The translations under genes were made by a program, and so were the position numbers. The notes under the pieces were generated by a model. That model was given only the letters and a program-made list of their open reading frames with translations, ran no database searches and was not told the origin of the DNA. Shown here piece by piece: positions 1-35,275 of a stretch of DNA of 51,920 bases. This DNA comes from a virus (lineage: Duplodnaviria > Caudoviricetes), in IMG/VR virus record IMGVR_UViG_3300025154_000017, positions 1 to 51,920 of that record; one strand, given 5' to 3'. Numbering within the stretch: the first letter of the stretch is position 1; every line of letters begins with the position of its first letter.

Positions 1-126
1 AAAAACTCAGGATGTTTTGTAATGTCATCTGAAGTTCCTTTTACCTCTGTGATCTTCTCTGTGACAAGAAAATCAATAAGCTCAACCCCTTCGAGTTCAG
101 AGTCAAAGCCATACTTATCCTTTACT
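1..126. repeat. Terminal direct repeat (circular-assembly overlap), copy 1
   Basis: 1..126 is identical to 51795..51920, and an ORF reads through the junction. Confidence 0.97.
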
Positions 127-344
127 GCCTTCTCAATCTTCGTTGCACCTTCCTTTATGCCACGCTTGTATTGATCGGTTCCGTCGCTTTTCAGTTTCTT
201 AATCCTGTCGCTGTCGGCTTTTTCAGCTATGGTCAAATCGACTAACTCTCCGGCATCGTTGTAAAGGCTTGCCAGTTCCTCGGTGTCAATCTTTAAGGTT
301 TTTGACAAAAAACCCTGTAACAACTTTTTTTCTTCTGCTGTCAT
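1..344 (-). CDS. Capsid scaffolding protein, N-terminal part (ORF wraps the origin; about 284 aa in total)
   Basis: ATG at 344 (MTAEEKKLLQGF...) reads open through the junction into 51284..51794; charged and helical; immediately upstream of the major capsid gene. Confidence 0.75.
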   Translation of the reverse strand, partial: MTAEEKKLLQGFLSKTLKIDTEELASLYNDAGELVDLTIAEKADSDRIKKLKSDGTDQYKRGIKEGATKIEKAVKDKYGFDSELEGVELIDFLVTEKITEVKGTSDDITKHPEF

Positions 345-6933: not shown

Positions 6934-9381
6934 CTATTTATAATAACTGTTAAAAACTTCACATAATTGATATTCGCAGTTATGCACAAGAATACCATTT
7001 GCAAAGTATTCATGTTCATCCTCCACGGTTATATCATAAACGGTTTTTTGTCCTCCTGGCTTTTCCCGCACATTGACGAGAGCAGAAAGTAGTTTTGCTC
7101 CATCTATTTGATCTAAACGTGTTTCCGCATAAGGAACATATCCTATCTTCATAATACTTTGTTGCAATACGAGCCAATCGTGTAATTCTCCTATTCTTGC
7201 AACTAATACAGCAGTATTTTGGTCGCCTTCTAAGTTTTGTTTGGAAAACGGCTTTGCATTCTTCGCAAACCGCAGAATACTCTTCACCATATATAGCGTG
7301 TTCAGCATTCTTAATATGCCACGCTCTTCCGTCAGGTGATTTATGCCATTCTGATGCTTTAGGTTGGGCCTTTTCTTGCAATACATCTTTAAGCATCTGC
7401 TTATAAGCATCAGACTTACATTCGTAATGGCTACCCATATGCTCTTTATAAGTAATAAGATTGAGATTTTCAATTTTATTATTGCTAAAATCACCATCAA
7501 TGTGATGTATCGTAAGTCCCTTTTGAATTTGCCCGTTATGCTTTTGCCATATGTACTGATGGAGATAAATCTTTTTCCATATCCCTGTTTCTTTTGTCCA
7601 TCCTTTGAAATAGTTCCGATCACTTGGTCTGTCTGCATTAGGGTATCTGTGAAATTTATACCCATCAATAATAATAGTTTCTCTATCCATGTCTTTTTTA
7701 TTGCAAAGATACTAATAATATTCTTTGCCGTCAGACTTGATACCATAATAAATTGACCACTTGCATAAATTTTATGATCCGGGGTGCAACTTAAGTTACG
7801 ATCACCTACGCTATACTTTTTTACTTCCTTATTATAAAATTTTCGTTTATCTATTACTTTTTTAAATCCCTTTCTTGTCAATACATTATCCCCGACTTTA
7901 ATCTTACTTATAGCCTTATTGCCCTTATCTGTAATAATTATTGTTTCGCCCACAAAACAAGTATCTGACAAATGGCCGTACTTCTGATACCTGTCACCTG
8001 TTTCTTTGTCTGTAACAATGTGTTTATCTTTTGCTCCGTTTATGTCCTGTTTGACGTACATCATATCAGCGACCATCAATTTGCAACTCTCGTCAATCAG
8101 TATTCTTATCGGTAATTTCTCTTCAAAGATACGGTTTATAAAGTCACGGCGTTTAGTAATCGACGGGTTCTGTCGCATCATCCTCGCTGATCCGTTTGTC
8201 AGAAACCTCCTTAATTTGTATTCAATGATCTCGTAATGATGCTTGAACTCTTTGTTCATTGTTGACCGTGCCCTGCCCGATGCATCACCGTAATAGTAAA
8301 TAGCAGATTTATGAGCATTATATCGCATCAGTATTTCTTCACAGACCTCTTCAGTTGAGTTACGAGGGTTTTCAAGTGCGATCTCGTCAATGCAATAGGA
8401 CCACCAAATATCATCCTTGCGCTCAAACTGCCAAATAGAACATGAATTGTAAGGAACGGAGTTTTGGTCAAACGAGATATGCAACGGCTTTGTTTTGTCG
8501 TAGGTACACTTGCCGACGTGTTTAAGGCGGTCAAAGGATGAATAGAACTCTCCCCCGGTTTGAGTGAAAGGGTTCCCGAATACAAGGGCACGGCCACGTT
8601 CCTCTGAGTTGTTGTCTAATATGCTTTGTATATAATTCTCTCCGACATTTTTAACATTGTGATAAGTAGATGATATCACCGCAAACTTATCACCTACTCG
8701 TTTCTCAAAGAACGTTTCACGGGAATATATCTTTGAGTTTATTTCTTCGACGTAGTTTTCTAAATTGAACCACTTCGAAATCCACTCTGTTTTTGCCGGT
8801 GAAGTTGTGATAAAAAGAGGATTGTATTGTTGATCTGGTTTACCCGTATGAGATAATTGGCCATTCACAAGGTACATTCCTTTTTTTCGTAGCCGCCCCA
8901 TAATAATCTCCTTCACGTCGGTCTCATCGGTATCTTTAGTCTCATCTAGGAACGCATAAGATATTTCCTTTCCTTCATGGTTTTTTGCGTTATCCATTGA
9001 GCCAATGAATATAATAGCTCCATTGATAAACGAAATAATGTTATGATAACTCTCAAAGTTATGACCATGCTTTTTAAAATGCTCTGGTGGTGTTTTGCCT
9101 ATAACGTATTGACCCCACGGGGAAGAATCTTTGCTATATTCTATTATGCCTACGGACTTCCAATATTCTCTGATCCTGAAAAGAGTTGCTGTGTTTAGCT
9201 GATCATAAAAATTTGCCCCAACAAAACCCACCGCATCGGGAAACGTTCTGATAAGCTGATATAATTTAATACCGCTTAAATGTGACTTCCCCGATCCAAG
9301 CCCTGCCAAAAATAAGTTTATAGAAGCAGTACTTTTTAATATTGCTTTCTGTGGAGCGGAAACTTCTTGTTCAATTTGCAT
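6934..9381 (-). CDS. terL: Terminase large subunit, intein-containing
   Basis: Walker A GLGSGKS, Walker B FLDE, ITTSP coupling motif, nuclease ISFD..GDASG..GHLSD; probable ATG at 9381 (track start 9405). Confidence 0.95.
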   Translation of the reverse strand: MQIEQEVSAPQKAILKSTASINLFLAGLGSGKSHLSGIKLYQLIRTFPDAVGFVGANFYDQLNTATLFRIREYWKSVGIIEYSKDSSPWGQYVIGKTPPEHFKKHGHNFESYHNIISFINGAIIFIGSMDNAKNHEGKEISYAFLDETKDTDETDVKEIIMGRLRKKGMYLVNGQLSHTGKPDQQYNPLFITTSPAKTEWISKWFNLENYVEEINSKIYSRETFFEKRVGDKFAVISSTYHNVKNVGENYIQSILDNNSEERGRALVFGNPFTQTGGEFYSSFDRLKHVGKCTYDKTKPLHISFDQNSVPYNSCSIWQFERKDDIWWSYCIDEIALENPRNSTEEVCEEILMRYNAHKSAIYYYGDASGRARSTMNKEFKHHYEIIEYKLRRFLTNGSARMMRQNPSITKRRDFINRIFEEKLPIRILIDESCKLMVADMMYVKQDINGAKDKHIVTDKETGDRYQKYGHLSDTCFVGETIIITDKGNKAISKIKVGDNVLTRKGFKKVIDKRKFYNKEVKKYSVGDRNLSCTPDHKIYASGQFIMVSSLTAKNIISIFAIKKTWIEKLLLLMGINFTDTLMQTDQVIGTISKDGQKKQGYGKRFISISTYGKSITGKFKRDLRYITLMVILAIIKLKISILLLIKSIWVAITNVSLMLISRCLKMYCKKRPNLKHQNGINHLTEERGILRMLNTLYMVKSILRFAKNAKPFSKQNLEGDQNTAVLVARIGELHDWLVLQQSIMKIGYVPYAETRLDQIDGAKLLSALVNVREKPGGQKTVYDITVEDEHEYFANGILVHNCEYQLCEVFNSYYK
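7034..7690 (-). CDS. HNH homing endonuclease with Zn fingers, nested out of frame in the intein
   Basis: YLHQYIW...IHHIDGDFSNNKIENL...EH HNH motif plus four CxxC/CxxxC pairs; -1 frame relative to terL. Confidence 0.92.
   Translation of the reverse strand: MDRETIIIDGYKFHRYPNADRPSDRNYFKGWTKETGIWKKIYLHQYIWQKHNGQIQKGLTIHHIDGDFSNNKIENLNLITYKEHMGSHYECKSDAYKQMLKDVLQEKAQPKASEWHKSPDGRAWHIKNAEHAIYGEEYSAVCEECKAVFQTKLRRRPKYCCISCKNRRITRLARIATKYYEDRICSLCGNTFRSNRWSKTTFCSRQCAGKARRTKNRL
7704..7711 (-). promoter_or_regulatory. Internal Bacteroidota -7 promoter element for the nested HNH
   Basis: TATCTTTG 13 nt upstream of the HNH ATG; TCTG 20 nt further upstream. Confidence 0.6.
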
Positions 9382-10150
9382 AGACCTCAATATATTTTCC
9401 CTCAACTAACTTCATACCTTTCTTCCAATTACGCTGAACTCCCTTCTTCCCCTTATTCCACGGCTTATGGCCGGTTTTTAATCCCTTGTTCCACGGAACA
9501 TAGCCAACCTTCGCCACACTTAATTTAGACTTATGTTCTTCCGTTAATTTTCTTCCTTTTTGTGCCTCACTCATCTTCTTTCTGATCTCTAACGATGGTG
9601 ATTTATGTTTTTTGCCTTTATGTATTCTACTTTGTTTTAATTTTGTTTCTTCGGATGGCCTAATCCCCATGTGAGACTTACTGATTTTTCTCTTAGTTTC
9701 TTCGGATAAACGCTTACCCAGATGTGATCTTCGACCCCTTTCTATTGATTCCGCACTCCGCTTGCGCCCCCTCCTTGAATTACTCATCTTTAATTTTGCT
9801 TCTTCTGAGTGTTTTCTGCCTCGTATTTTTGCAATTTGCTCCTCAGTCTTCTTTATCCCTAAATTGCTACTTGCGGTAGGGGAACAATTAAAATATGGCT
9901 TATAAGCGTCAATATAAAATTGCTCAATAGGGATTAGGTCGCCCCTGTCACACTCACAAATTATATTAAAGGTTAAATCAGATAATTCATATTTATTGAA
10001 GTGCCTTTGAAGTTTTGGAGAATGATGTTTGTTTGATTTCAAATCATTGATGTGAATATTCCACCTTTTTTCGATCATTATTGAATGACCGATATAACAC
10101 CTCTCTGGTTTACGCTTTGACCTGATTATATATACTCCGCAGTGCATCAC
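9371..10150 (-). CDS. Free-standing GIY-YIG homing endonuclease with NUMOD3 repeats
   Basis: GVYII...YIGHS..R...H, EQFYID, repeated HSEETKxKxS. Confidence 0.92.
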   Translation of the reverse strand: MMHCGVYIIRSKRKPERCYIGHSIMIEKRWNIHINDLKSNKHHSPKLQRHFNKYELSDLTFNIICECDRGDLIPIEQFYIDAYKPYFNCSPTASSNLGIKKTEEQIAKIRGRKHSEEAKLKMSNSRRGRKRSAESIERGRRSHLGKRLSEETKRKISKSHMGIRPSEETKLKQSRIHKGKKHKSPSLEIRKKMSEAQKGRKLTEEHKSKLSVAKVGYVPWNKGLKTGHKPWNKGKKGVQRNWKKGMKLVEGKYIEVYAN

Positions 10151-21476: not shown

Positions 21477-22228
21477 ACCCCTGCCAGTCTTTTAATTCGT
21501 TCATCATGTGTTTCTTCTTTACGCTCACGGTTCTCATATTTACACTCAAATATCTTTATAAAATTAGTCGGCCTCATTATCCATTCTAAATCTGCCTTCC
21601 ATGCTTTATCATTCTTCCCATTAAGAAAATCACTTTGCCCGGCAAGCCTTAAAACTGTTGTCATCTTTTCAATACCATATTCCATAAATCTTGCATGAAC
21701 AAATCCCCTTCGCTCTCCGGTTAGTTTTTCAACTCTCGACATTTTTGGACATAAATCGTGATATAAATTTACTATTAAATCATAATCAATATCATTACCA
21801 ATATCATTACCAGTACCACTACCATTACCATAGGGGCTTTGAAGCACCTTTGAAGCCCCTTCTATAAATTGATTTATATTTTCTATTTCAAACTTAACAG
21901 CGTATAATTCAAATCTCTTTATTATACCCTTATGTGCCATATTTTCAGGGTTTAATGGATAGTTTTTCTGATGCTTTAAAAAGTTTTTTATAAATATGCA
22001 ATCATTATTGGTCGAAAATAACAAGCCCCTTTGAAGCCCCTTTAAAGCCCCTTCAGTTATATTCTTGTCATATCCAATATCTGAGGCCCATCTTTTAATA
22101 TTCAATTCAATAAAACCGGCAATATCACAATTATCACAGAGGTAATTGAATAATAATTTTTCGGCTGGTTTTAAATTAGCAAACCAAGCATCTCCCCACT
22201 TGTCTGTATTTGTATATCTATATGCCAT
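21473..22228 (-). CDS. Phage replication initiator / replisome organiser
   Basis: N-terminal wHTH-like domain (W.D.WF..L...EKLLF.YL), low-complexity linker, C-terminal SDFLNG.N...WKADLEW....NF.KI.E..Y; internal repeats. Confidence 0.75.
   Translation of the reverse strand: MAYRYTNTDKWGDAWFANLKPAEKLLFNYLCDNCDIAGFIELNIKRWASDIGYDKNITEGALKGLQRGLLFSTNNDCIFIKNFLKHQKNYPLNPENMAHKGIIKRFELYAVKFEIENINQFIEGASKVLQSPYGNGSGTGNDIGNDIDYDLIVNLYHDLCPKMSRVEKLTGERRGFVHARFMEYGIEKMTTVLRLAGQSDFLNGKNDKAWKADLEWIMRPTNFIKIFECKYENRERKEETHDERIKRLAGV
21832..22054. repeat. Iteron-like 11-bp repeats (putative origin)
   Basis: (G/C/A)AAGCCCCTT(T/C) x3 at 22022..22054, x2 at 21841..21862 (one with a mismatch), inverted copy at 21832..21841. 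Confidence 0.7.
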
Positions 22229-22583
22229 AACTCTCGAAATAAAATTTAATTGGCACATCATTTTCTTGGATAAGTTTAAAACGCAAAATAATCCGATAAG
22301 ATGAACTATCCCTATTAAGTCTTTTCTTTTTTTGTGCTAATTCACTTCTCCACTGCTCTATAGTAAATACCCCCTTAGATGAATTACATGAGAAACATGA
22401 TGGATTAAAATTTTCAATAGCATTTGATCCCTTTTTGTTTTTATCTCGTTCCCCCCTTCTTAATGCCTTAATATGATCTATCACAAAAGAAGTATTATTT
22501 AGTCTACAGCCACAGTAGGCACACCTACCCCCATATTTATTATAAACAATTTCTCTGACTATCTTATCAGAAATATTACTCAT
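22218..22583 (-). CDS. HNH endonuclease
   Basis: KYGGRCAYCG...IDHIK...N.IENFNPSC.SCN.SK. Confidence 0.9.
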   Translation of the reverse strand: MSNISDKIVREIVYNKYGGRCAYCGCRLNNTSFVIDHIKALRRGERDKNKKGSNAIENFNPSCFSCNSSKGVFTIEQWRSELAQKKKRLNRDSSSYRIILRFKLIQENDVPIKFYFESYGI

Positions 22584-22597
22584 AGCTATAATATTAA

Positions 22598-22733
22598 GCC
22601 AGCACCAGTAAAACAAAAATCCGATTAGGGAGGAGCGACCGCAACCTTTTTCGGACTTTGTCTACCAGTGCTGGCAGTATGTGATACTAATGTTTTTGTT
22701 CTCATATCGCTCCTATTATTGAATACAAACTTA
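22598..22733 (-). promoter_or_regulatory. Promoter plus structured leader with a 26-codon uORF
   Basis: TAAGTTTG at 22726..22733; long inverted repeat 22657..22675/22598..22617; uORF 22625..22705. Confidence 0.6.
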
Positions 22734-31846: not shown

Positions 31847-31879
31847 AAAAAAGAGGGCCACCCACCGGATAACCCTCTT
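31847..31879 (-). terminator. Intrinsic terminator after the lysis module
   Basis: AAGAGGGTTATCC-GGT-GGGTGGCCCTCTT followed by TTTT. Confidence 0.85.
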
Positions 31880-31922
31880 CAAAACCCCAAAACTAACTAA
31901 CATGAAAAACCCATGAAGAGAC
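31847..31922 (-). ncRNA. Putative small RNA (U-rich, two UUCAUG motifs)
   Basis: TATCTTTG at 31927..31934, then about 75 nt of apparently non-coding sequence ending in a terminator. Confidence 0.4.
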
Positions 31923-31934
31923 AGAACAAAGATA

Positions 31935-32375
31935 TTAATTTATTTCAATCCACACTTCTTCCCCGTTATTTTCTGCTGCGGTAATCTTTGAGTTTAACAG
32001 ATCACTCCATGCACGTGAATTGACTAACCGGCCCTGAATAGTGTTCTCCCCGACTAAAATGCAGCCCCTGGTATCACTCACCGAGTTACCGGGATGCAAC
32101 ATTACACCTGTGAAGCCGTAAACATTCTGTAAGTATGGCATAGGCCGGTTGAAAGTAGGACTGTGAGCCATCTTAATCCTGTACTTACCCGCAGGTATGG
32201 CCGTGTCACCGTAGATTTTACCCTCGTCAGGATCATTAAAGTCACCGTCGTCGTTTAAGTCAATCAAGTCCCTCACCGGATCCTCTAAACTGTTGCATTG
32301 AAATTCCACCCCGATATACAGCTTGCCTATCGTGTAGGTGGCTTTTTTTATCTTCCGGTAGAGGTAGAGGTTCAT
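31935..32375 (-). CDS. Putative endolysin (DUF5675 / L,D-peptidase-like)
   Basis: TIGKL...LE...KIYGDTAIPAG.Y...HPGN...DTRGCILVG. Confidence 0.8.
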   Translation of the reverse strand: MNLYLYRKIKKATYTIGKLYIGVEFQCNSLEDPVRDLIDLNDDGDFNDPDEGKIYGDTAIPAGKYRIKMAHSPTFNRPMPYLQNVYGFTGVMLHPGNSVSDTRGCILVGENTIQGRLVNSRAWSDLLNSKITAAENNGEEVWIEIN

Positions 32376-32842
32376 CAGAAGGTGTAGTTAGCTCCCCAAA
32401 GTAAGAAGTAATTTTCTTTGGCTGGTGTGCCCTTAACAAAATCCAATCCCACACCAAGTGACGGAGAAAGCCCCATGACGTTAAAAGCAGAACCGGTCAA
32501 TAGAATACCCGTACATGGCCTCTCCGTTGTCGCTACGCTAATTTGTGCTGCAAACGAATACACATTGTAAGGTTCACCATCGACGAGCTTAAACAGGCTG
32601 TATGACGCCCCAAATCCCACACGTGAGGCAAACGACATTTGAAAGCTGTCGAACTTGCCATCAACGTAAAGAGGCTTAAACACCGTCCCTGCTATTGTGA
32701 ACTCAGGCCGGATAAGCAGAACACCACTCAGTGCCCTGTCGCCTGTCTTGAACATATCAGCTGTTACAGGGGTGAAGAATGACTGAGCATGAAGACCCAC
32801 CGTCATCAAACAGACAACGGTGAGCAACATGAGCCGCTTCAT
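32375..32842 (-). CDS. Exported beta-rich protein (outer-membrane barrel-like)
   Basis: Signal peptide, amphipathic beta strands, C-terminal Y.F. Confidence 0.55.
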   Translation of the reverse strand: MKRLMLLTVVCLMTVGLHAQSFFTPVTADMFKTGDRALSGVLLIRPEFTIAGTVFKPLYVDGKFDSFQMSFASRVGFGASYSLFKLVDGEPYNVYSFAAQISVATTERPCTGILLTGSAFNVMGLSPSLGVGLDFVKGTPAKENYFLLWGANYTF

Positions 32843-33081
32843 ACGCTGTCAGTGGCCTTGAACATCAAAATCAAGGCTGAAACATAGCCAACTAACTGGC
32901 CCCCTACTGTAATAATCCCCGCAAGGATTTCGTTCAATGGCTGTGCCTCGTCTGAAGTGATTTTGCCCGTAGCAAGCAAAACGGTGACAACAAGGTTAGC
33001 TGCCATAAGTAGAATACCTGAAATGGTTGTCACGAGGTTTCTCGTTGGTGCTGATTTGTCATAAAATGCTTTTGCGCTCAT
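32839..33081 (-). CDS. Putative holin
   Basis: 80 aa, two TM helices, in the lysis cassette. Confidence 0.6.
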   Translation of the reverse strand: MSAKAFYDKSAPTRNLVTTISGILLMAANLVVTVLLATGKITSDEAQPLNEILAGIITVGGQLVGYVSALILMFKATDSV

Positions 33082-33091
33082 AATAAATTTA

Positions 33092-34009
33092 TTAGTTAAT
33101 ACTTAATTCAGACAAATATAATAATTCCTTATTACATATTACACAGTCCTCAAAATTACCAGTATGCCATCTTTTATGGTTTACCCTCTTAGCTATCATT
33201 GAATGCTTTGCTCTTTCTTCCGGACTGTCCATTAACTTAATCATAATATCACTCATTTTCTTTAATGTTTCCGCAGAACGTGGGGGTCTATTTTTTGCTC
33301 TTTCGCTCATTAGTTTTCTTTCCTCAATTGATATTTCGCCACGAGATTCGCGTATTTTTCTTTTCGTTTCATCCGTATGATGCTTACCGTAAAAAGAATT
33401 TTTTTCCCCCTTATGAGATTCGCTAAGCTTCCTTTTGGTCTCGTCAGTTATAACTCTATTTATTCGTGCTTTTGACATATTTTCTCTATGCTCTTCAGAA
33501 AATATTCTTCCCTTGCTTGCTTCGCTTAATTTCTGTTTATGTTCTTCCGAAAAATGCCTCCCCTTAGAATTAGCCGATTGTTTTCCCCTTGATTCAATAG
33601 AACGTATTTTGCCAGTATTAGCTCTCCTTATTCGGTCTTTTGTTTCCTGAGTTATTTTACGTCTCCTATTAGATTCGCTTATCTTGAGCTTAGCTTCCTT
33701 ACTTAATTTAAATCCAAGCGGGCTATCTGCTATTGGTCTATTATTAAAGTAAGGTTTATATGCATCAATAAAAAACTGTTCATTAGATATTAATTCATCT
33801 TTATCACAAGTCAAAATTATACTAAATGACAGATCGCTTTTATTGTATTTATTATAATGATTTTGTAACTTTAATGAATAGTGATTATTGTTTTTTAAGC
33901 AACGTAGATGCTCATTCCATCGACGCATTATATGAACCGAACTGCCAATATAAATACGGTCAGGTTTTGCTGACGAACGTATCATATATACTCCAATAAT
34001 ATGTTCCAT
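33092..34009 (-). CDS. Free-standing GIY-YIG homing endonuclease with NUMOD3 repeats
   Basis: GVYMI...YIGSS..RR..EH, EQFFID, N.FYGKHHTDETKRKI. Confidence 0.92.
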   Translation of the reverse strand: MEHIIGVYMIRSSAKPDRIYIGSSVHIMRRWNEHLRCLKNNNHYSLKLQNHYNKYNKSDLSFSIILTCDKDELISNEQFFIDAYKPYFNNRPIADSPLGFKLSKEAKLKISESNRRRKITQETKDRIRRANTGKIRSIESRGKQSANSKGRHFSEEHKQKLSEASKGRIFSEEHRENMSKARINRVITDETKRKLSESHKGEKNSFYGKHHTDETKRKIRESRGEISIEERKLMSERAKNRPPRSAETLKKMSDIMIKLMDSPEERAKHSMIAKRVNHKRWHTGNFEDCVICNKELLYLSELSIN

Positions 34010-34027
34010 GCAATAAAATTACGAATA

Positions 34028-34816
34028 TTATTTGATATTAACAAGTATATTATAATATTCGGAATCTCGTAGATTTCCGTCAAAAAAGCAGATTGCTTCG
34101 TCGATCGCTTCTTCACCTATGCCATGAAGCTGAGTACCATGCGTCGAATTATGTATTATCAGTGTGTTGTTACTACACACAAGGCCGTCGAGCAGGTAGT
34201 CCGGGCCTTCAATCGTAGGTATCTGATCGAACTCAGCCGAAGGTAAGTATTGCCGTATCTCGGTAAACCAGTGACGGTATGTTATCCCCTGCCGCAAAAG
34301 TCGCATGGCATACCACGTAAACGCTCCCCGGTAATCGTCATTGATGTAGGCATCTGCCGCAGTTTGCGTTTCTCCGCAAGCACTTATAGCTATCCATTTA
34401 ATGTCTGAACGAAGGAAAAAAGGCCGTGAAACAGTCCTTACAGGCTGTCCCGGGGTAGCATAAAACCTGTTCTTAACCCTGTGGTATTCCTCCACTCCCC
34501 GCTTATCAAACAGCCGTGTCACGGTAGCCGAAAAACAACTGTCAGCCAGTACCACAACTGTTGCACCAGGTTTAAGTAGTGATACAGCCGCCGCCACGTT
34601 CGTTCTAAAGGCTTTTAACGTTGCCTCTGAATCCAAGTACCGCCTAACGTCAAAGTCCGGCCAGTGCCCTAATAACGTGTCCTTAACCTGTCGGCTATCA
34701 TTTAAGCACCCACGCAAGTCATTCGTGCTGCCGGGGTAGTCGTTTATCGCAAACGAGAGTAACCGCCTTTCAGCGAACTCCATTGTCGGGGGTACAGGTT
34801 TCTTCCAGCACATCAC
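34028..34816 (-). CDS. Caspase-family (C14, metacaspase-like) peptidase with permuted motif order
   Basis: INDY..L.GCLND, DSCFS, SAC...QTAAD, GAFT, Q.P; the His motif STHG..DEAIC..D lies at the C-terminus. Confidence 0.85.
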   Translation of the reverse strand: MMCWKKPVPPTMEFAERRLLSFAINDYPGSTNDLRGCLNDSRQVKDTLLGHWPDFDVRRYLDSEATLKAFRTNVAAAVSLLKPGATVVVLADSCFSATVTRLFDKRGVEEYHRVKNRFYATPGQPVRTVSRPFFLRSDIKWIAISACGETQTAADAYINDDYRGAFTWYAMRLLRQGITYRHWFTEIRQYLPSAEFDQIPTIEGPDYLLDGLVCSNNTLIIHNSTHGTQLHGIGEEAIDEAICFFDGNLRDSEYYNILVNIK

Positions 34817-35226
34817 TTTATAGTTTCTTTAATTTCCTGCACATCCTGACGCATCTCTTTGTTTTTAAGGTTATCAGCCACCGTCGAGAACGTGCCGTAT
34901 GAGCTTATTATCAGAGTTATCACGAAGAACGCAATGATAATCACCGTCCATGTCGGGTGACGTTTGAAGAACTTGTACTCAATTAAATCGTCTTTTAAGG
35001 CTTCGATATCCTTTGCCTTTGAGCATTCAATAGGGTGCAGCGTCAGTTTTTCTTTTAAGATCCCAACGTCATCCTCAAGTTCATTAACCCTATGATTAGT
35101 TGTCGTCGTCTGAACCTCTATCCTGTCAAGTCTGTCGTGGACTGTCTCAAACTGTGCATTCATGTGCTTGTTTAAGCCTCCAAATTTTTCTTCTAAGTAC
35201 AGGCGGTAATCTTTTGAATCAGTCAT
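34813..35226 (-). CDS. Coiled-coil plus TM protein (holin/XhlA-like)
   Basis: RLDRIE coiled coil followed by one TM helix. Confidence 0.55.
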   Translation of the reverse strand: MTDSKDYRLYLEEKFGGLNKHMNAQFETVHDRLDRIEVQTTTTNHRVNELEDDVGILKEKLTLHPIECSKAKDIEALKDDLIEYKFFKRHPTWTVIIIAFFVITLIISSYGTFSTVADNLKNKEMRQDVQEIKETIK

Positions 35227-35275
35227 TTAAATTAAGTTGTACCCCCTCCCGCTTCCGACGACGGTTGAGAGTTGG

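Follow-up and report, generated by a model that had tools for sequence, protein, structure and literature searches.

Can a caspase-type protease keep its fold and its active site when the segment that carries the catalytic His has been moved behind the catalytic Cys? This question is raised by an open reading frame (ORF) at positions 34028..34816, minus strand, of IMG/VR virus record IMGVR_UViG_3300025154_000017, a complete tailed-phage record of 51,920 bp with direct terminal repeats; this whole stretch of DNA was analysed and is referred to as the window. The ORF encodes a Peptidase_C14 protein in which the His block, composed of strand beta3, loop L3 with its small three-stranded sheet, and helix alpha3 (nomenclature as in the accessible part of the clan CD review PMC4357240), follows the normal C-terminus. 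We put the probability at roughly 75% that the protein represents a genuine, probably active phage subfamily of C14 proteases in which the His block was relocated as a unit and whose gene belongs to a late lysis-type cassette.

Arrangement of the sequence blocks

The protein matched the Pfam family PF00656 (Peptidase_C14) with 43.5 bits against a cut-off (gathering score) of 21.4, but the match was split into two stretches, and a collinear Pfam match jumped over profile positions 63–119. The chain runs from an N-terminal part through the catalytic Cys with a p10-like part and a linker to the His block, with Cys preceding His (Table 1); the canonical place of the moved block is between helix alpha2 and the Cys strand beta4. 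A previous examination of the same DNA without database searches (the sequence-only reading) had proposed such a rearrangement. All the motifs that it quoted are present in the translation (INDYPGSTNDLRGCLND, LKPGATVVVLADSCFS, SACGETQTAADA and QIPTIEG, then TLIIHNSTHGTQ and, further on, DEAICFFDGNLRDSEY), and its coordinates and strand for the ORF were correct. We also agree with it in rejecting a simple circular permutation: the chain still opens with the N-terminal beta1-alpha1-beta2-alpha2 part.

The relocation was evident from comparisons with solved structures. A phmmer search against PDB sequences aligned the protein with GSU0716 (3bij_A) in crossed order: residues 221–258 of the query fell on 79–119, residues 83–104 on 124–145, and residues 112–195 on 176–255. 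This crossed mapping was repeated by a profile of 33 family members (alignment A1) with 3bij, Yca1 (4f6o and 4f6p), 7qp0 and AtMC4 (6w8s), and the table from the profile search puts the His block likewise in TbMCA2 (4af8). As judged from these alignments, the non-collinear order relative to solved metacaspases is far beyond chance.

The closest canonical relative from a phage that shares the gene neighbourhood (L032, hereafter the canonical sister) allowed the joints to be located. BLASTP returned two high-scoring segment pairs, the first aligning query residues 3–212 to subject residues 4–260 with one 51-residue gap, and the second (E 4e-09) placing query residues ~213–260 on subject residues ~79–132, i.e., on the residues missing from the first. 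Likewise, in a MAFFT alignment of 114 sequences, the His block occupied columns 186–257 in canonical rows and 503–575 in permuted rows, while the rest was collinear. The end of alpha2 (..AAVSL) joins LKPGATVVV, which matches the canonical segment before beta4 (IPQGATVV in the sister), and the canonical C-terminal tail (LFNKIVLI followed by the stop codon in the sister) is retained as LLDGLVCS, which runs on into NNTLIIHNSTHG. At the level of the alignments, the two proteins differ by one clean 51-residue cut-and-paste. A reading of ADSCFS as a degenerate His strand was ruled out, since its counterpart in the canonical sisters is DSCFSG and the His block stands apart as a discrete indel of 51 residues.

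The DNA at the start of the ORF reads ...AAG TGA TG TGC..., in which the stop codon TGA of the upstream gene overlaps the ATG at 34813 (TGATG). Because of this overlap, the start is likely this ATG, and the product is most likely 261 amino acids (aa) beginning with MCWKK. Residue numbers follow the listed ORF of 262 residues, as in the alignment and the model.

Table 1. Protease gene, its blocks and its neighbours in window coordinates (aa, amino acids; pLDDT, predicted local distance difference test)
Feature	Position	Strand	Description
C14 (metacaspase-like) protease ORF	34028..34816	(-)	listed start GTG 34816, 262 aa; stop codon 34028..34030
N block, residues 2–82	34571..34813	(-)	MCWKK, beta1 (17–23), alpha1 with GC.ND (Cys37, Asp40), beta2, alpha2; collinear with canonical relatives
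Cys block and p10-like part, residues 83–203	34208..34570	(-)	LKPGATVVVLADSCFS (beta4), low-confidence loop 96–112, Arg117, SACGETQTAADA, alpha4, alpha5, QIPTIEG last strand
Codon of catalytic Cys94 (TGT, in DSC)	34535..34537	(-)	
Linker, residues 204–217 (GPDYLLDGLVCSNN)	34166..34207	(-)	first part corresponds to the canonical C-terminal tail, then back to the relocated strand; pLDDT 92–97
Relocated His block, residues 218–262	34031..34165	(-)	beta3 (218–224, TLIIHNS), HG, L3 strands (227–231, 238–244, 247–250), alpha3 (251–258)
Codon of catalytic His226 (CAT, in STHG)	34139..34141	(-)	
137-aa coiled-coil protein with C-terminal membrane segment (cluster 12)	34813..35226	(-)	upstream, translationally coupled to the protease gene
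Free-standing GIY-YIG/NUMOD3 homing endonuclease	33092..34009	(-)	between protease and holin-like gene; outside the conserved cassette
80-aa two-segment membrane protein, holin-like (cluster 3)	32839..33081	(-)	Phage_holin_10 E 0.021, below cut-off; conserved downstream neighbour
155-aa secreted protein (cluster 1)	32375..32842	(-)	signal peptide ..HA/Q (cleavage at slash); C-terminal Phe invariant in 15/15 relatives; no Pfam match
DUF5675 (Tlde1-like) protein (cluster 8)	31935..32375	(-)	candidate wall peptidase or lysin
Terminator-like hairpin	31850..31880	(-)	14-pair stem and T run, directly after DUF5675 gene

Frequency of the permuted order

To score the order of the blocks, we used segment hidden Markov models for the N part (N), the Cys-plus-p10-like part (CP) and the His block (H) over 264 collected proteins. 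The permuted order N-CP-H was found in 122 proteins and the canonical order N-H-CP in 120; six long proteins were N-H-CP-N-H-CP tandems, and the few remaining were fragments, with N-CP and CP-H matches coming from short fragments. The sequence-only reading had left it to a homologue search whether the order recurs, and these 122 proteins settle the point in its favour. The permuted order was present in 99/117 proteins of one homologue collection and in 26 of the best 150 representatives at 50% identity. An exhaustive search returned 16,334 C14 relatives at E <= 0.001, 335 of them at <= 1e-30. A caspase ORF was called at 78 IMG/VR loci; it was permuted at 33, canonical at 43 and a C-terminal fragment at two.

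Outside such collections the permuted form is scarce. A tblastn search against 50,697 GenBank phage records gave no match, and a profile scan of 185,579 species genomes gave 24 loci, of which two were permuted, both on contigs of binned metagenome genomes. The neighbours of the protein in the ESM Atlas were caspase-domain clusters that were 62–100% viral, and the cluster members examined were named only 'hypothetical protein'. The permuted protein had no match in PHROGs, PADLOC or NCBIfam, whereas the canonical sister matched the caspase models of NCBIfam and PADLOC (the generic 'caspase' model of the latter at E 5.4e-07). Such proteases are thus under-counted in viromes, because collinear profile models miss the permuted form.

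Predicted fold

An AlphaFold2 model built from alignment A1 had a mean pLDDT of 81.9 and a predicted template modelling score (pTM) of 0.83, and fell below a pLDDT of 50 only in loop 96–112 after the Cys. Its first part comprises beta1 (17–23), alpha1, beta2, alpha2, beta4 (86–91) and this loop; strands 142–145, 154–158 and 161–164, alpha4, alpha5 and the last strand 201–203 follow, and the chain ends with a short helix, strand 218–224, short strands 227–231, 238–244 and 247–250, and helix 251–258. The strand 218–224 lies in 10-residue blocks of mean pLDDT 97 and 87. The element count (8 sheet strands, 3 L3 strands and 5 helices) matches the topology of TbMCA2 as given in the accessible text of PMC4357240. 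Cys94 comes after strand 86–91 and His226 after strand 218–224, that is, at the ends of beta4 and beta3.

The best Foldseek matches of the model were all metacaspases or caspases (TM ~0.5). By VIA-align, it superposed on AtMC4 (6w8t_A) with Z 17.9 and 185 residues over model positions 16..215 and on 3bij_B with Z 15.3, and its last 45 residues stayed outside every sequential structural alignment. As a control, the canonical sister was folded with 27 canonical relatives (alignment A5). The sister model (pTM 0.80) had an equal set of elements, with strand 86–92, three short strands and helix 122–128 lying between alpha2 and beta4, and it aligned 229, 222 and 223 residues to 6w8t_A, 3bij_B and 6w8r (Z 23.8–26.6), compared with 185, 176 and 178 residues for the permuted model (6w8r by a different chain). 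The permuted model falls short by 44–46 residues, which is as many as the moved block contains.

The remainder of the permuted model superposed on the crystal structures at 2.6–3.6 Å. Since both beta1 and beta4 align to the crystal structures, the slot between them is preserved, and since strand 218–224 is the sole confident hydrophobic strand left unassigned, we infer that it fills the beta3 slot and brings His226 beside Cys94. A structure prediction had been suggested in the sequence-only reading to see whether the dyad reassembles. The model bears out a complete caspase fold, with the pTM given above and all elements of the sister; the reassembly of the dyad itself is deduced from the preserved slot.

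Conserved residues and predicted active site

Conservation was assessed in an alignment of the window protein with the 122 permuted proteins (n = 123; identity 35–92%). Cys94, His226, Asp92, Ser224, Gly227, Asp155, Gly164 and Asp251 are present in 123/123 members, Asp40 in 122/123 and Cys37 in 118/123. Both catalytic residues are therefore kept, as previously proposed, and the part of the sequence-only reading that saw a rewired C14 protease here is supported.

According to the accessible part of PMC4357240, metacaspases favour Arg or Lys at P1, and the proposed S1 pocket of TbMCA2 consists of Cys92, Asp95, Ser156 and Asp211. By motif and spacing, the equivalents here are Cys37 and Asp40 (GC.ND), Ser224 (S.HG) and Asp92 (DSC). 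Cleavage after Arg or Lys is therefore predicted from this acidic pocket. In the metacaspase/orthocaspase subfamily (C14B), peptidase activity of this specificity often depends on Ca. Conservation of this kind indicates that the permuted lineage has been under strong constraint since the rearrangement, and the protease is probably an active enzyme.

Two further conserved sites were noted. Arg117 (34466..34468, minus strand), which is kept in 119/123 permuted members with Lys in two more, stands directly after the low-confidence post-Cys loop at the position of the caspase inter-subunit linker and is a candidate autoprocessing site. The N-terminus MC[FW]KK (residues 2–5; 34802..34813, minus strand) is shared by permuted members and canonical phage sisters, and its Cys is kept in 109/123 permuted members; it may serve in membrane association, as a pseudo-substrate or, through KK, as a site of autoprocessing.

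Evolutionary origin

For the tree, sequences shorter than 225 aa were dropped (6/198), dereplication at 75% identity left 114 rows, and both column ranges of the His block were removed. In a quick IQ-TREE tree, 65/66 permuted rows fell into two clades (58 and 7 rows) inside a polytomy with canonical phage rows, and this polytomy nests within more distant canonical sequences. In an approximately unbiased test, a tree uniting all 66 permuted rows was not rejected (log-likelihood difference 7.7, p 0.378). The motif around the catalytic His reads HYSGHG in the basal permuted clade, as it does in the canonical sisters, and HNS[ST]HG in the large clade; the MC.KK N-terminus and DSCFS are also common to the canonical sisters. 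Because of these shared motifs, the His block is taken to come from the same gene lineage and not from a foreign caspase. The rearrangement probably arose in one event within the canonical phage metacaspase clade.

Duplication is the usual first step towards permutation. Canonical caspase genes stand in tandem pairs in two large viral contigs (L065 and L066, 37 kb and 530 kb), and these, together with the N-H-CP-N-H-CP proteins, show that duplication occurs in the superfamily. The route may have been a tandem duplication followed by loss of H from the first copy and of N and CP from the second.

Genomic context

Nearly every gene of the phage lies on the minus strand. PHROG matches identify tape measure, large terminase, portal, and replication and recombination genes; in our reading, head and baseplate/fibre genes can be assigned from position. 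As had been stated from the sequence alone, the protease gene lies among holin-like, membrane and lysin-like genes, and this neighbourhood is conserved across many phages. On the coding strand, tail-fibre-like genes with a GDSL esterase, a small lipoprotein-like protein and the 137-aa coiled-coil protein precede the protease, which is followed by the GIY-YIG endonuclease, the 80-aa membrane protein, the 155-aa secreted protein, the DUF5675 protein and the hairpin (Table 1). The hairpin is the likely end of the late operon. The 155-aa protein is a candidate for a small outer-membrane-barrel-like protein and could be an outer-membrane-disrupting component of the cassette. Against PDB sequences, neither a profile search with this protein nor a phmmer search with the DUF5675 protein gave anything below E 0.3. 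In the accessible part of a preprint (10.64898/2026.04.11.717860), a DUF5675 lysin candidate is grouped with C82 peptidases by structure.

Neighbours were counted after dereplicating the loci at 90% identity to 54, of which 18 were permuted with downstream DNA; membrane segments were called by a crude hydropathy scan. The next gene on the same strand encodes a small membrane protein in 15/18 permuted loci, in two of them after an endonuclease. These 15 proteins belong to cluster 3 (five loci), cluster 4 (five), cluster 33 (three), cluster 32 (one) and cluster 176 (one); clusters 3 and 4 were also considered as a single family, which was ruled out by an hhalign probability of 0.9%. A cluster-1 protein is encoded further on in 25 loci and a DUF5675 protein in 15, and the canonical sisters hold the same genomic slot before the holin-like gene. 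Unrelated small membrane proteins that swap at a fixed position are typical of holin genes. The swapping observed here therefore indicates that a conserved lysis-type cassette closes the late operon and has the protease gene at its 5' edge, with the holin and the lysin being putative assignments.

The homing endonuclease behind the protease gene is an insertion, because in most relatives nothing separates the protease gene from the membrane-protein gene; the same site is also occupied in L009 and L075 and is empty in most relatives. A second, related GIY-YIG/NUMOD3 homing endonuclease lies at 9371..10150 (minus strand), just upstream of the terminase, and an HNH endonuclease lies at 22218..22616 (minus strand), making the genome rich in selfish elements. 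The large terminase itself (6934..9405, minus strand; 823 aa) has Terminase_6N at residues 33–290 and sub-threshold Hint/Intein_splicing matches at ~482–809, which suggests an intein inside TerL.

Other loci showed further variations of the neighbourhood. In L049 (6516-7385), a cluster-4 four-segment membrane protein and a cluster-1-like secreted domain share one 289-aa ORF, either a natural fusion or the product of a missed stop or frameshift. A 221-aa protein without a family match, encoded 20 kb from the protease in this genome (13140..13805, minus strand), has homologues (cluster 2, lipoprotein-like) within 1–2 kb of the protease in 21 other loci. A gene for a sigma factor of the extracytoplasmic function type (Sigma70_r2/r4) occurs within a few genes of the protease in L018-L030, L036, L038 and L045, and proteins of clusters 10 and 12, coiled coils that end in a membrane segment, are encoded nearby and could be anti-sigma-like.

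The sequencing runs that hold the phage genome are labelled groundwater metagenomes, and no RNA run was listed among the runs found to hold the window. A Gln after the signal-peptide cleavage site is a habit of Bacteroidota. Neighbouring genes of the protease encode signal peptides ending in ..A/Q, which suggests a host in this phylum.

Possible role and alternative explanations

Because the protease stands at the 5' edge of a lysis-type cassette, the role that we favour, though tentatively and at less than even odds, is a late proteolytic step that aids or times host-cell disruption. Of the three roles named in the sequence-only reading, namely lysis, virion maturation and counter-defence, it is lysis that the context favours. 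In such a scheme, the C-terminal strand would fold back between beta1 and beta4 and rebuild both the His/Cys dyad and the acidic S1 pocket; and the gene would be expressed with the late operon, the resulting proteolysis assisting or timing the disruption of the host cell. One speculative substrate is the two-segment membrane protein, from which the protease might remove the positively charged N-terminal tail (..PTR14/NLVTT), by analogy with the logic of pinholin antiholins. A complex prediction for the protease and the 80-aa membrane protein (alignments A1 and A2) scored 0.00 against a mark of 0.32, which counts neither way. A bolder extension appears improbable to us: this would be the first natural clan CD lineage with Cys before His by non-circular transposition, and the docking block would be a switch that triggers the neighbouring holin-type protein. 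The enzyme would then be silent until its C-terminal block has docked, either into its own chain or into another protomer, and would act as an irreversible proteolytic trigger at the end of the late programme, for example by trimming the charged N-terminal tail of the holin-type protein.

Several observations weigh against the reading of a single relocated, active and lysis-associated lineage. Both the proximity of His226 to Cys94 and the placement of strand 218–224 between beta1 and beta4 are deduced from the model. A comparison of the window gene with L001 and L083 by the NG86 method gave saturated synonymous distances, with nonsynonymous distances of 0.17–0.27. The unrelated families in the holin-like slot speak against a specific protease–holin partnership and a dedicated pair of protease and membrane protein. 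In the L018-L030 group, the gene stands not beside a lysin but two genes upstream of portal, MuF and DUF2213 protein genes. As for the origin, the permuted P0104, on a long branch, groups with canonical rows at weak support, a possible second origin, and no intermediate (N-H-CP-H, N-CP-N-H, two His blocks or a split gene) was found among the 264 proteins.

If the protease is active but serves counter-defence or host takeover, it would cleave host immune or housekeeping proteins, and its position among lysis genes would be a late accessory placement. This fits with the PADLOC match of the canonical sister, with the location of the gene at the border between two modules, a place where homing endonucleases and accessory genes gather, and with the report that bacterial conflict systems commonly use caspase-like proteases as executors (PMC8195603, accessible part). 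However, otherwise dissimilar phages retain the link of the gene to the small membrane protein and to the cluster-1 protein, the protease carries neither sensor nor adaptor domains, only 3 distant canonical proteins came up when longer fused forms were sought, and PADLOC has no match for the permuted protein. We consider such a function unlikely. Interference with gasdermin-type defence had also been raised in the sequence-only reading; nothing in the data points there, including PADLOC, which has no match for the protease.

Another explanation concerns the enzyme rather than its target. The His block sits on a 14-residue linker after an edge strand and, as caspases are obligate dimers, might dock in the beta3 slot of a second protomer, giving a domain-swapped enzyme that works only as a dimer or oligomer. 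The accessible text of PMC4357240, which describes this property of caspases, also describes metacaspases as active monomers, and the AlphaFold monomer is predicted to dock the block within the chain through a linker of high confidence (pLDDT 92–97), leaving trans-complementation improbable. Still less probable is a pseudo-protease, which would fold with a dyad that no longer works and survive as a binding or scaffold protein of the lysis cassette. The dyad geometry is deduced from the preserved slot, the post-Cys loop is predicted at low confidence, and the residue after the catalytic Cys is Phe (DSCFS) where it is usually His; yet DSCFS is also found in the canonical sisters, and a dead enzyme would not be expected to retain all catalytic and specificity residues, as is seen from the invariance of His226, Cys94, Asp92 and Ser224 in 123/123 members at 35–92% identity and of Asp40 in 122/123.

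A maturation protease acting on head or tail proteins would suit the location near portal, MuF and DUF2213 in L018-L030 and that after the tail-fibre-like genes in the window, but is very improbable given that the gene is missing from most phages with the same structural modules and that its steadiest neighbours encode membrane and secreted proteins, not capsid proteins. Finally, misassembly had been named in the sequence-only reading as one of the findings that would overturn it. Logan contigs of 2429 and 2420 nt from two runs (depth ~21–22) cover at least 33000–35231, show 0 differences from the window and have no joint within the gene; the two runs may be the source sample, and the contigs accordingly show only the agreement of a second assembler. 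From runs of other studies (X5 and X7), only pieces around the homing endonuclease and the stretch 35053–35210 were recovered, and none of the protease gene. An assembly chimera or a frameshift artefact, for which nothing speaks beyond the oddity itself, can practically be dismissed, with a complete genome bounded by terminal repeats, joint-free contigs and the same order in 122/264 relatives from many data sets, down to ~35% identity.

Comparison with known systems

Clan CD membership is clear by descent, as traced through the tree and the alignment with the sister. The caspase-haemoglobinase fold of the clan, which has a central sheet in the order 2-1-3-4-... between flanking helices, is predicted by the model, with a pTM of 0.83, metacaspase and caspase matches in Foldseek, and the element inventory of the sister, and the S1-pocket residues of C14B are recognized by motif spacing, with Cys37, Asp40, Ser224 and Asp92 in 118, 122, 123 and 123 of 123 members. 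Assignment to clan CD also uses the dyad order His before Cys (PMC4357240, accessible part), whereas Cys94 precedes His226 in this protein, and the same holds for the 122/264 relatives. A well-populated natural lineage, with about 28 clusters at 50% identity among the best 150 representatives, thus breaks the order rule of the clan yet keeps the catalytic and specificity residues. A literature search, with subscription journals largely outside its range, returned nothing that describes a His strand moved to a new place, clan CD enzymes in which Cys precedes His, or caspase-type proteases in the lysis cassettes of phages. The association of caspase-type proteases with lysis genes in phages of probable Bacteroidota hosts suggests an undescribed proteolytic step in host-cell disruption.

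Type III metacaspases, known from algae with secondary plastids, are likewise a natural rearrangement of the C14 domain order and, among the rearrangements described, come nearest to the phage form. As described in the accessible text of Choi and Berges 2013 (PMC3734836), p10 precedes p20 in these enzymes, which is a circular permutation, and His then Cys both lie in p20. In the phage protein, by contrast, the p10-like part follows the N-part and the Cys strand, the N-terminus is unchanged, one internal block has moved and the dyad order is inverted; in addition, the phage lineage is viral and type III is eukaryotic. Engineered reverse caspases-3 and -6 and a circularly permuted caspase-2 (PMC3734836 and PMC7760212, accessible parts) similarly indicate that the fold tolerates altered connectivity and stays active. 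Those are man-made circular permutations at the junction of the large and small subunits, whereas here the His strand is relocated. The phage lineage indicates that the caspase fold tolerates relocation of a central sheet strand, beyond circular permutation. Its natural layout, in which a flexible tether at the C-terminus carries the His block, could inspire split or switchable proteases of the caspase type.

The closest known systems are the stand-alone metacaspase-like proteins of bacteria and phages, represented by GSU0716 (3bij) and the phage sisters L032 and P0098 (Peptidase C14B without a prodomain). They share with the phage protein the fold, a length of ~260 aa and the motifs GC.ND, S.HG, DSC, SAC..QT.ADA and QIP..EG, and the canonical phage sisters additionally share the MC.KK N-terminus, DSCFS and the slot before the holin-like gene. 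The difference lies in the His block, which is C-terminal in the permuted protein, with Cys before His. The canonical sisters in the same slot provide a matched pair for direct comparison of the two arrangements.

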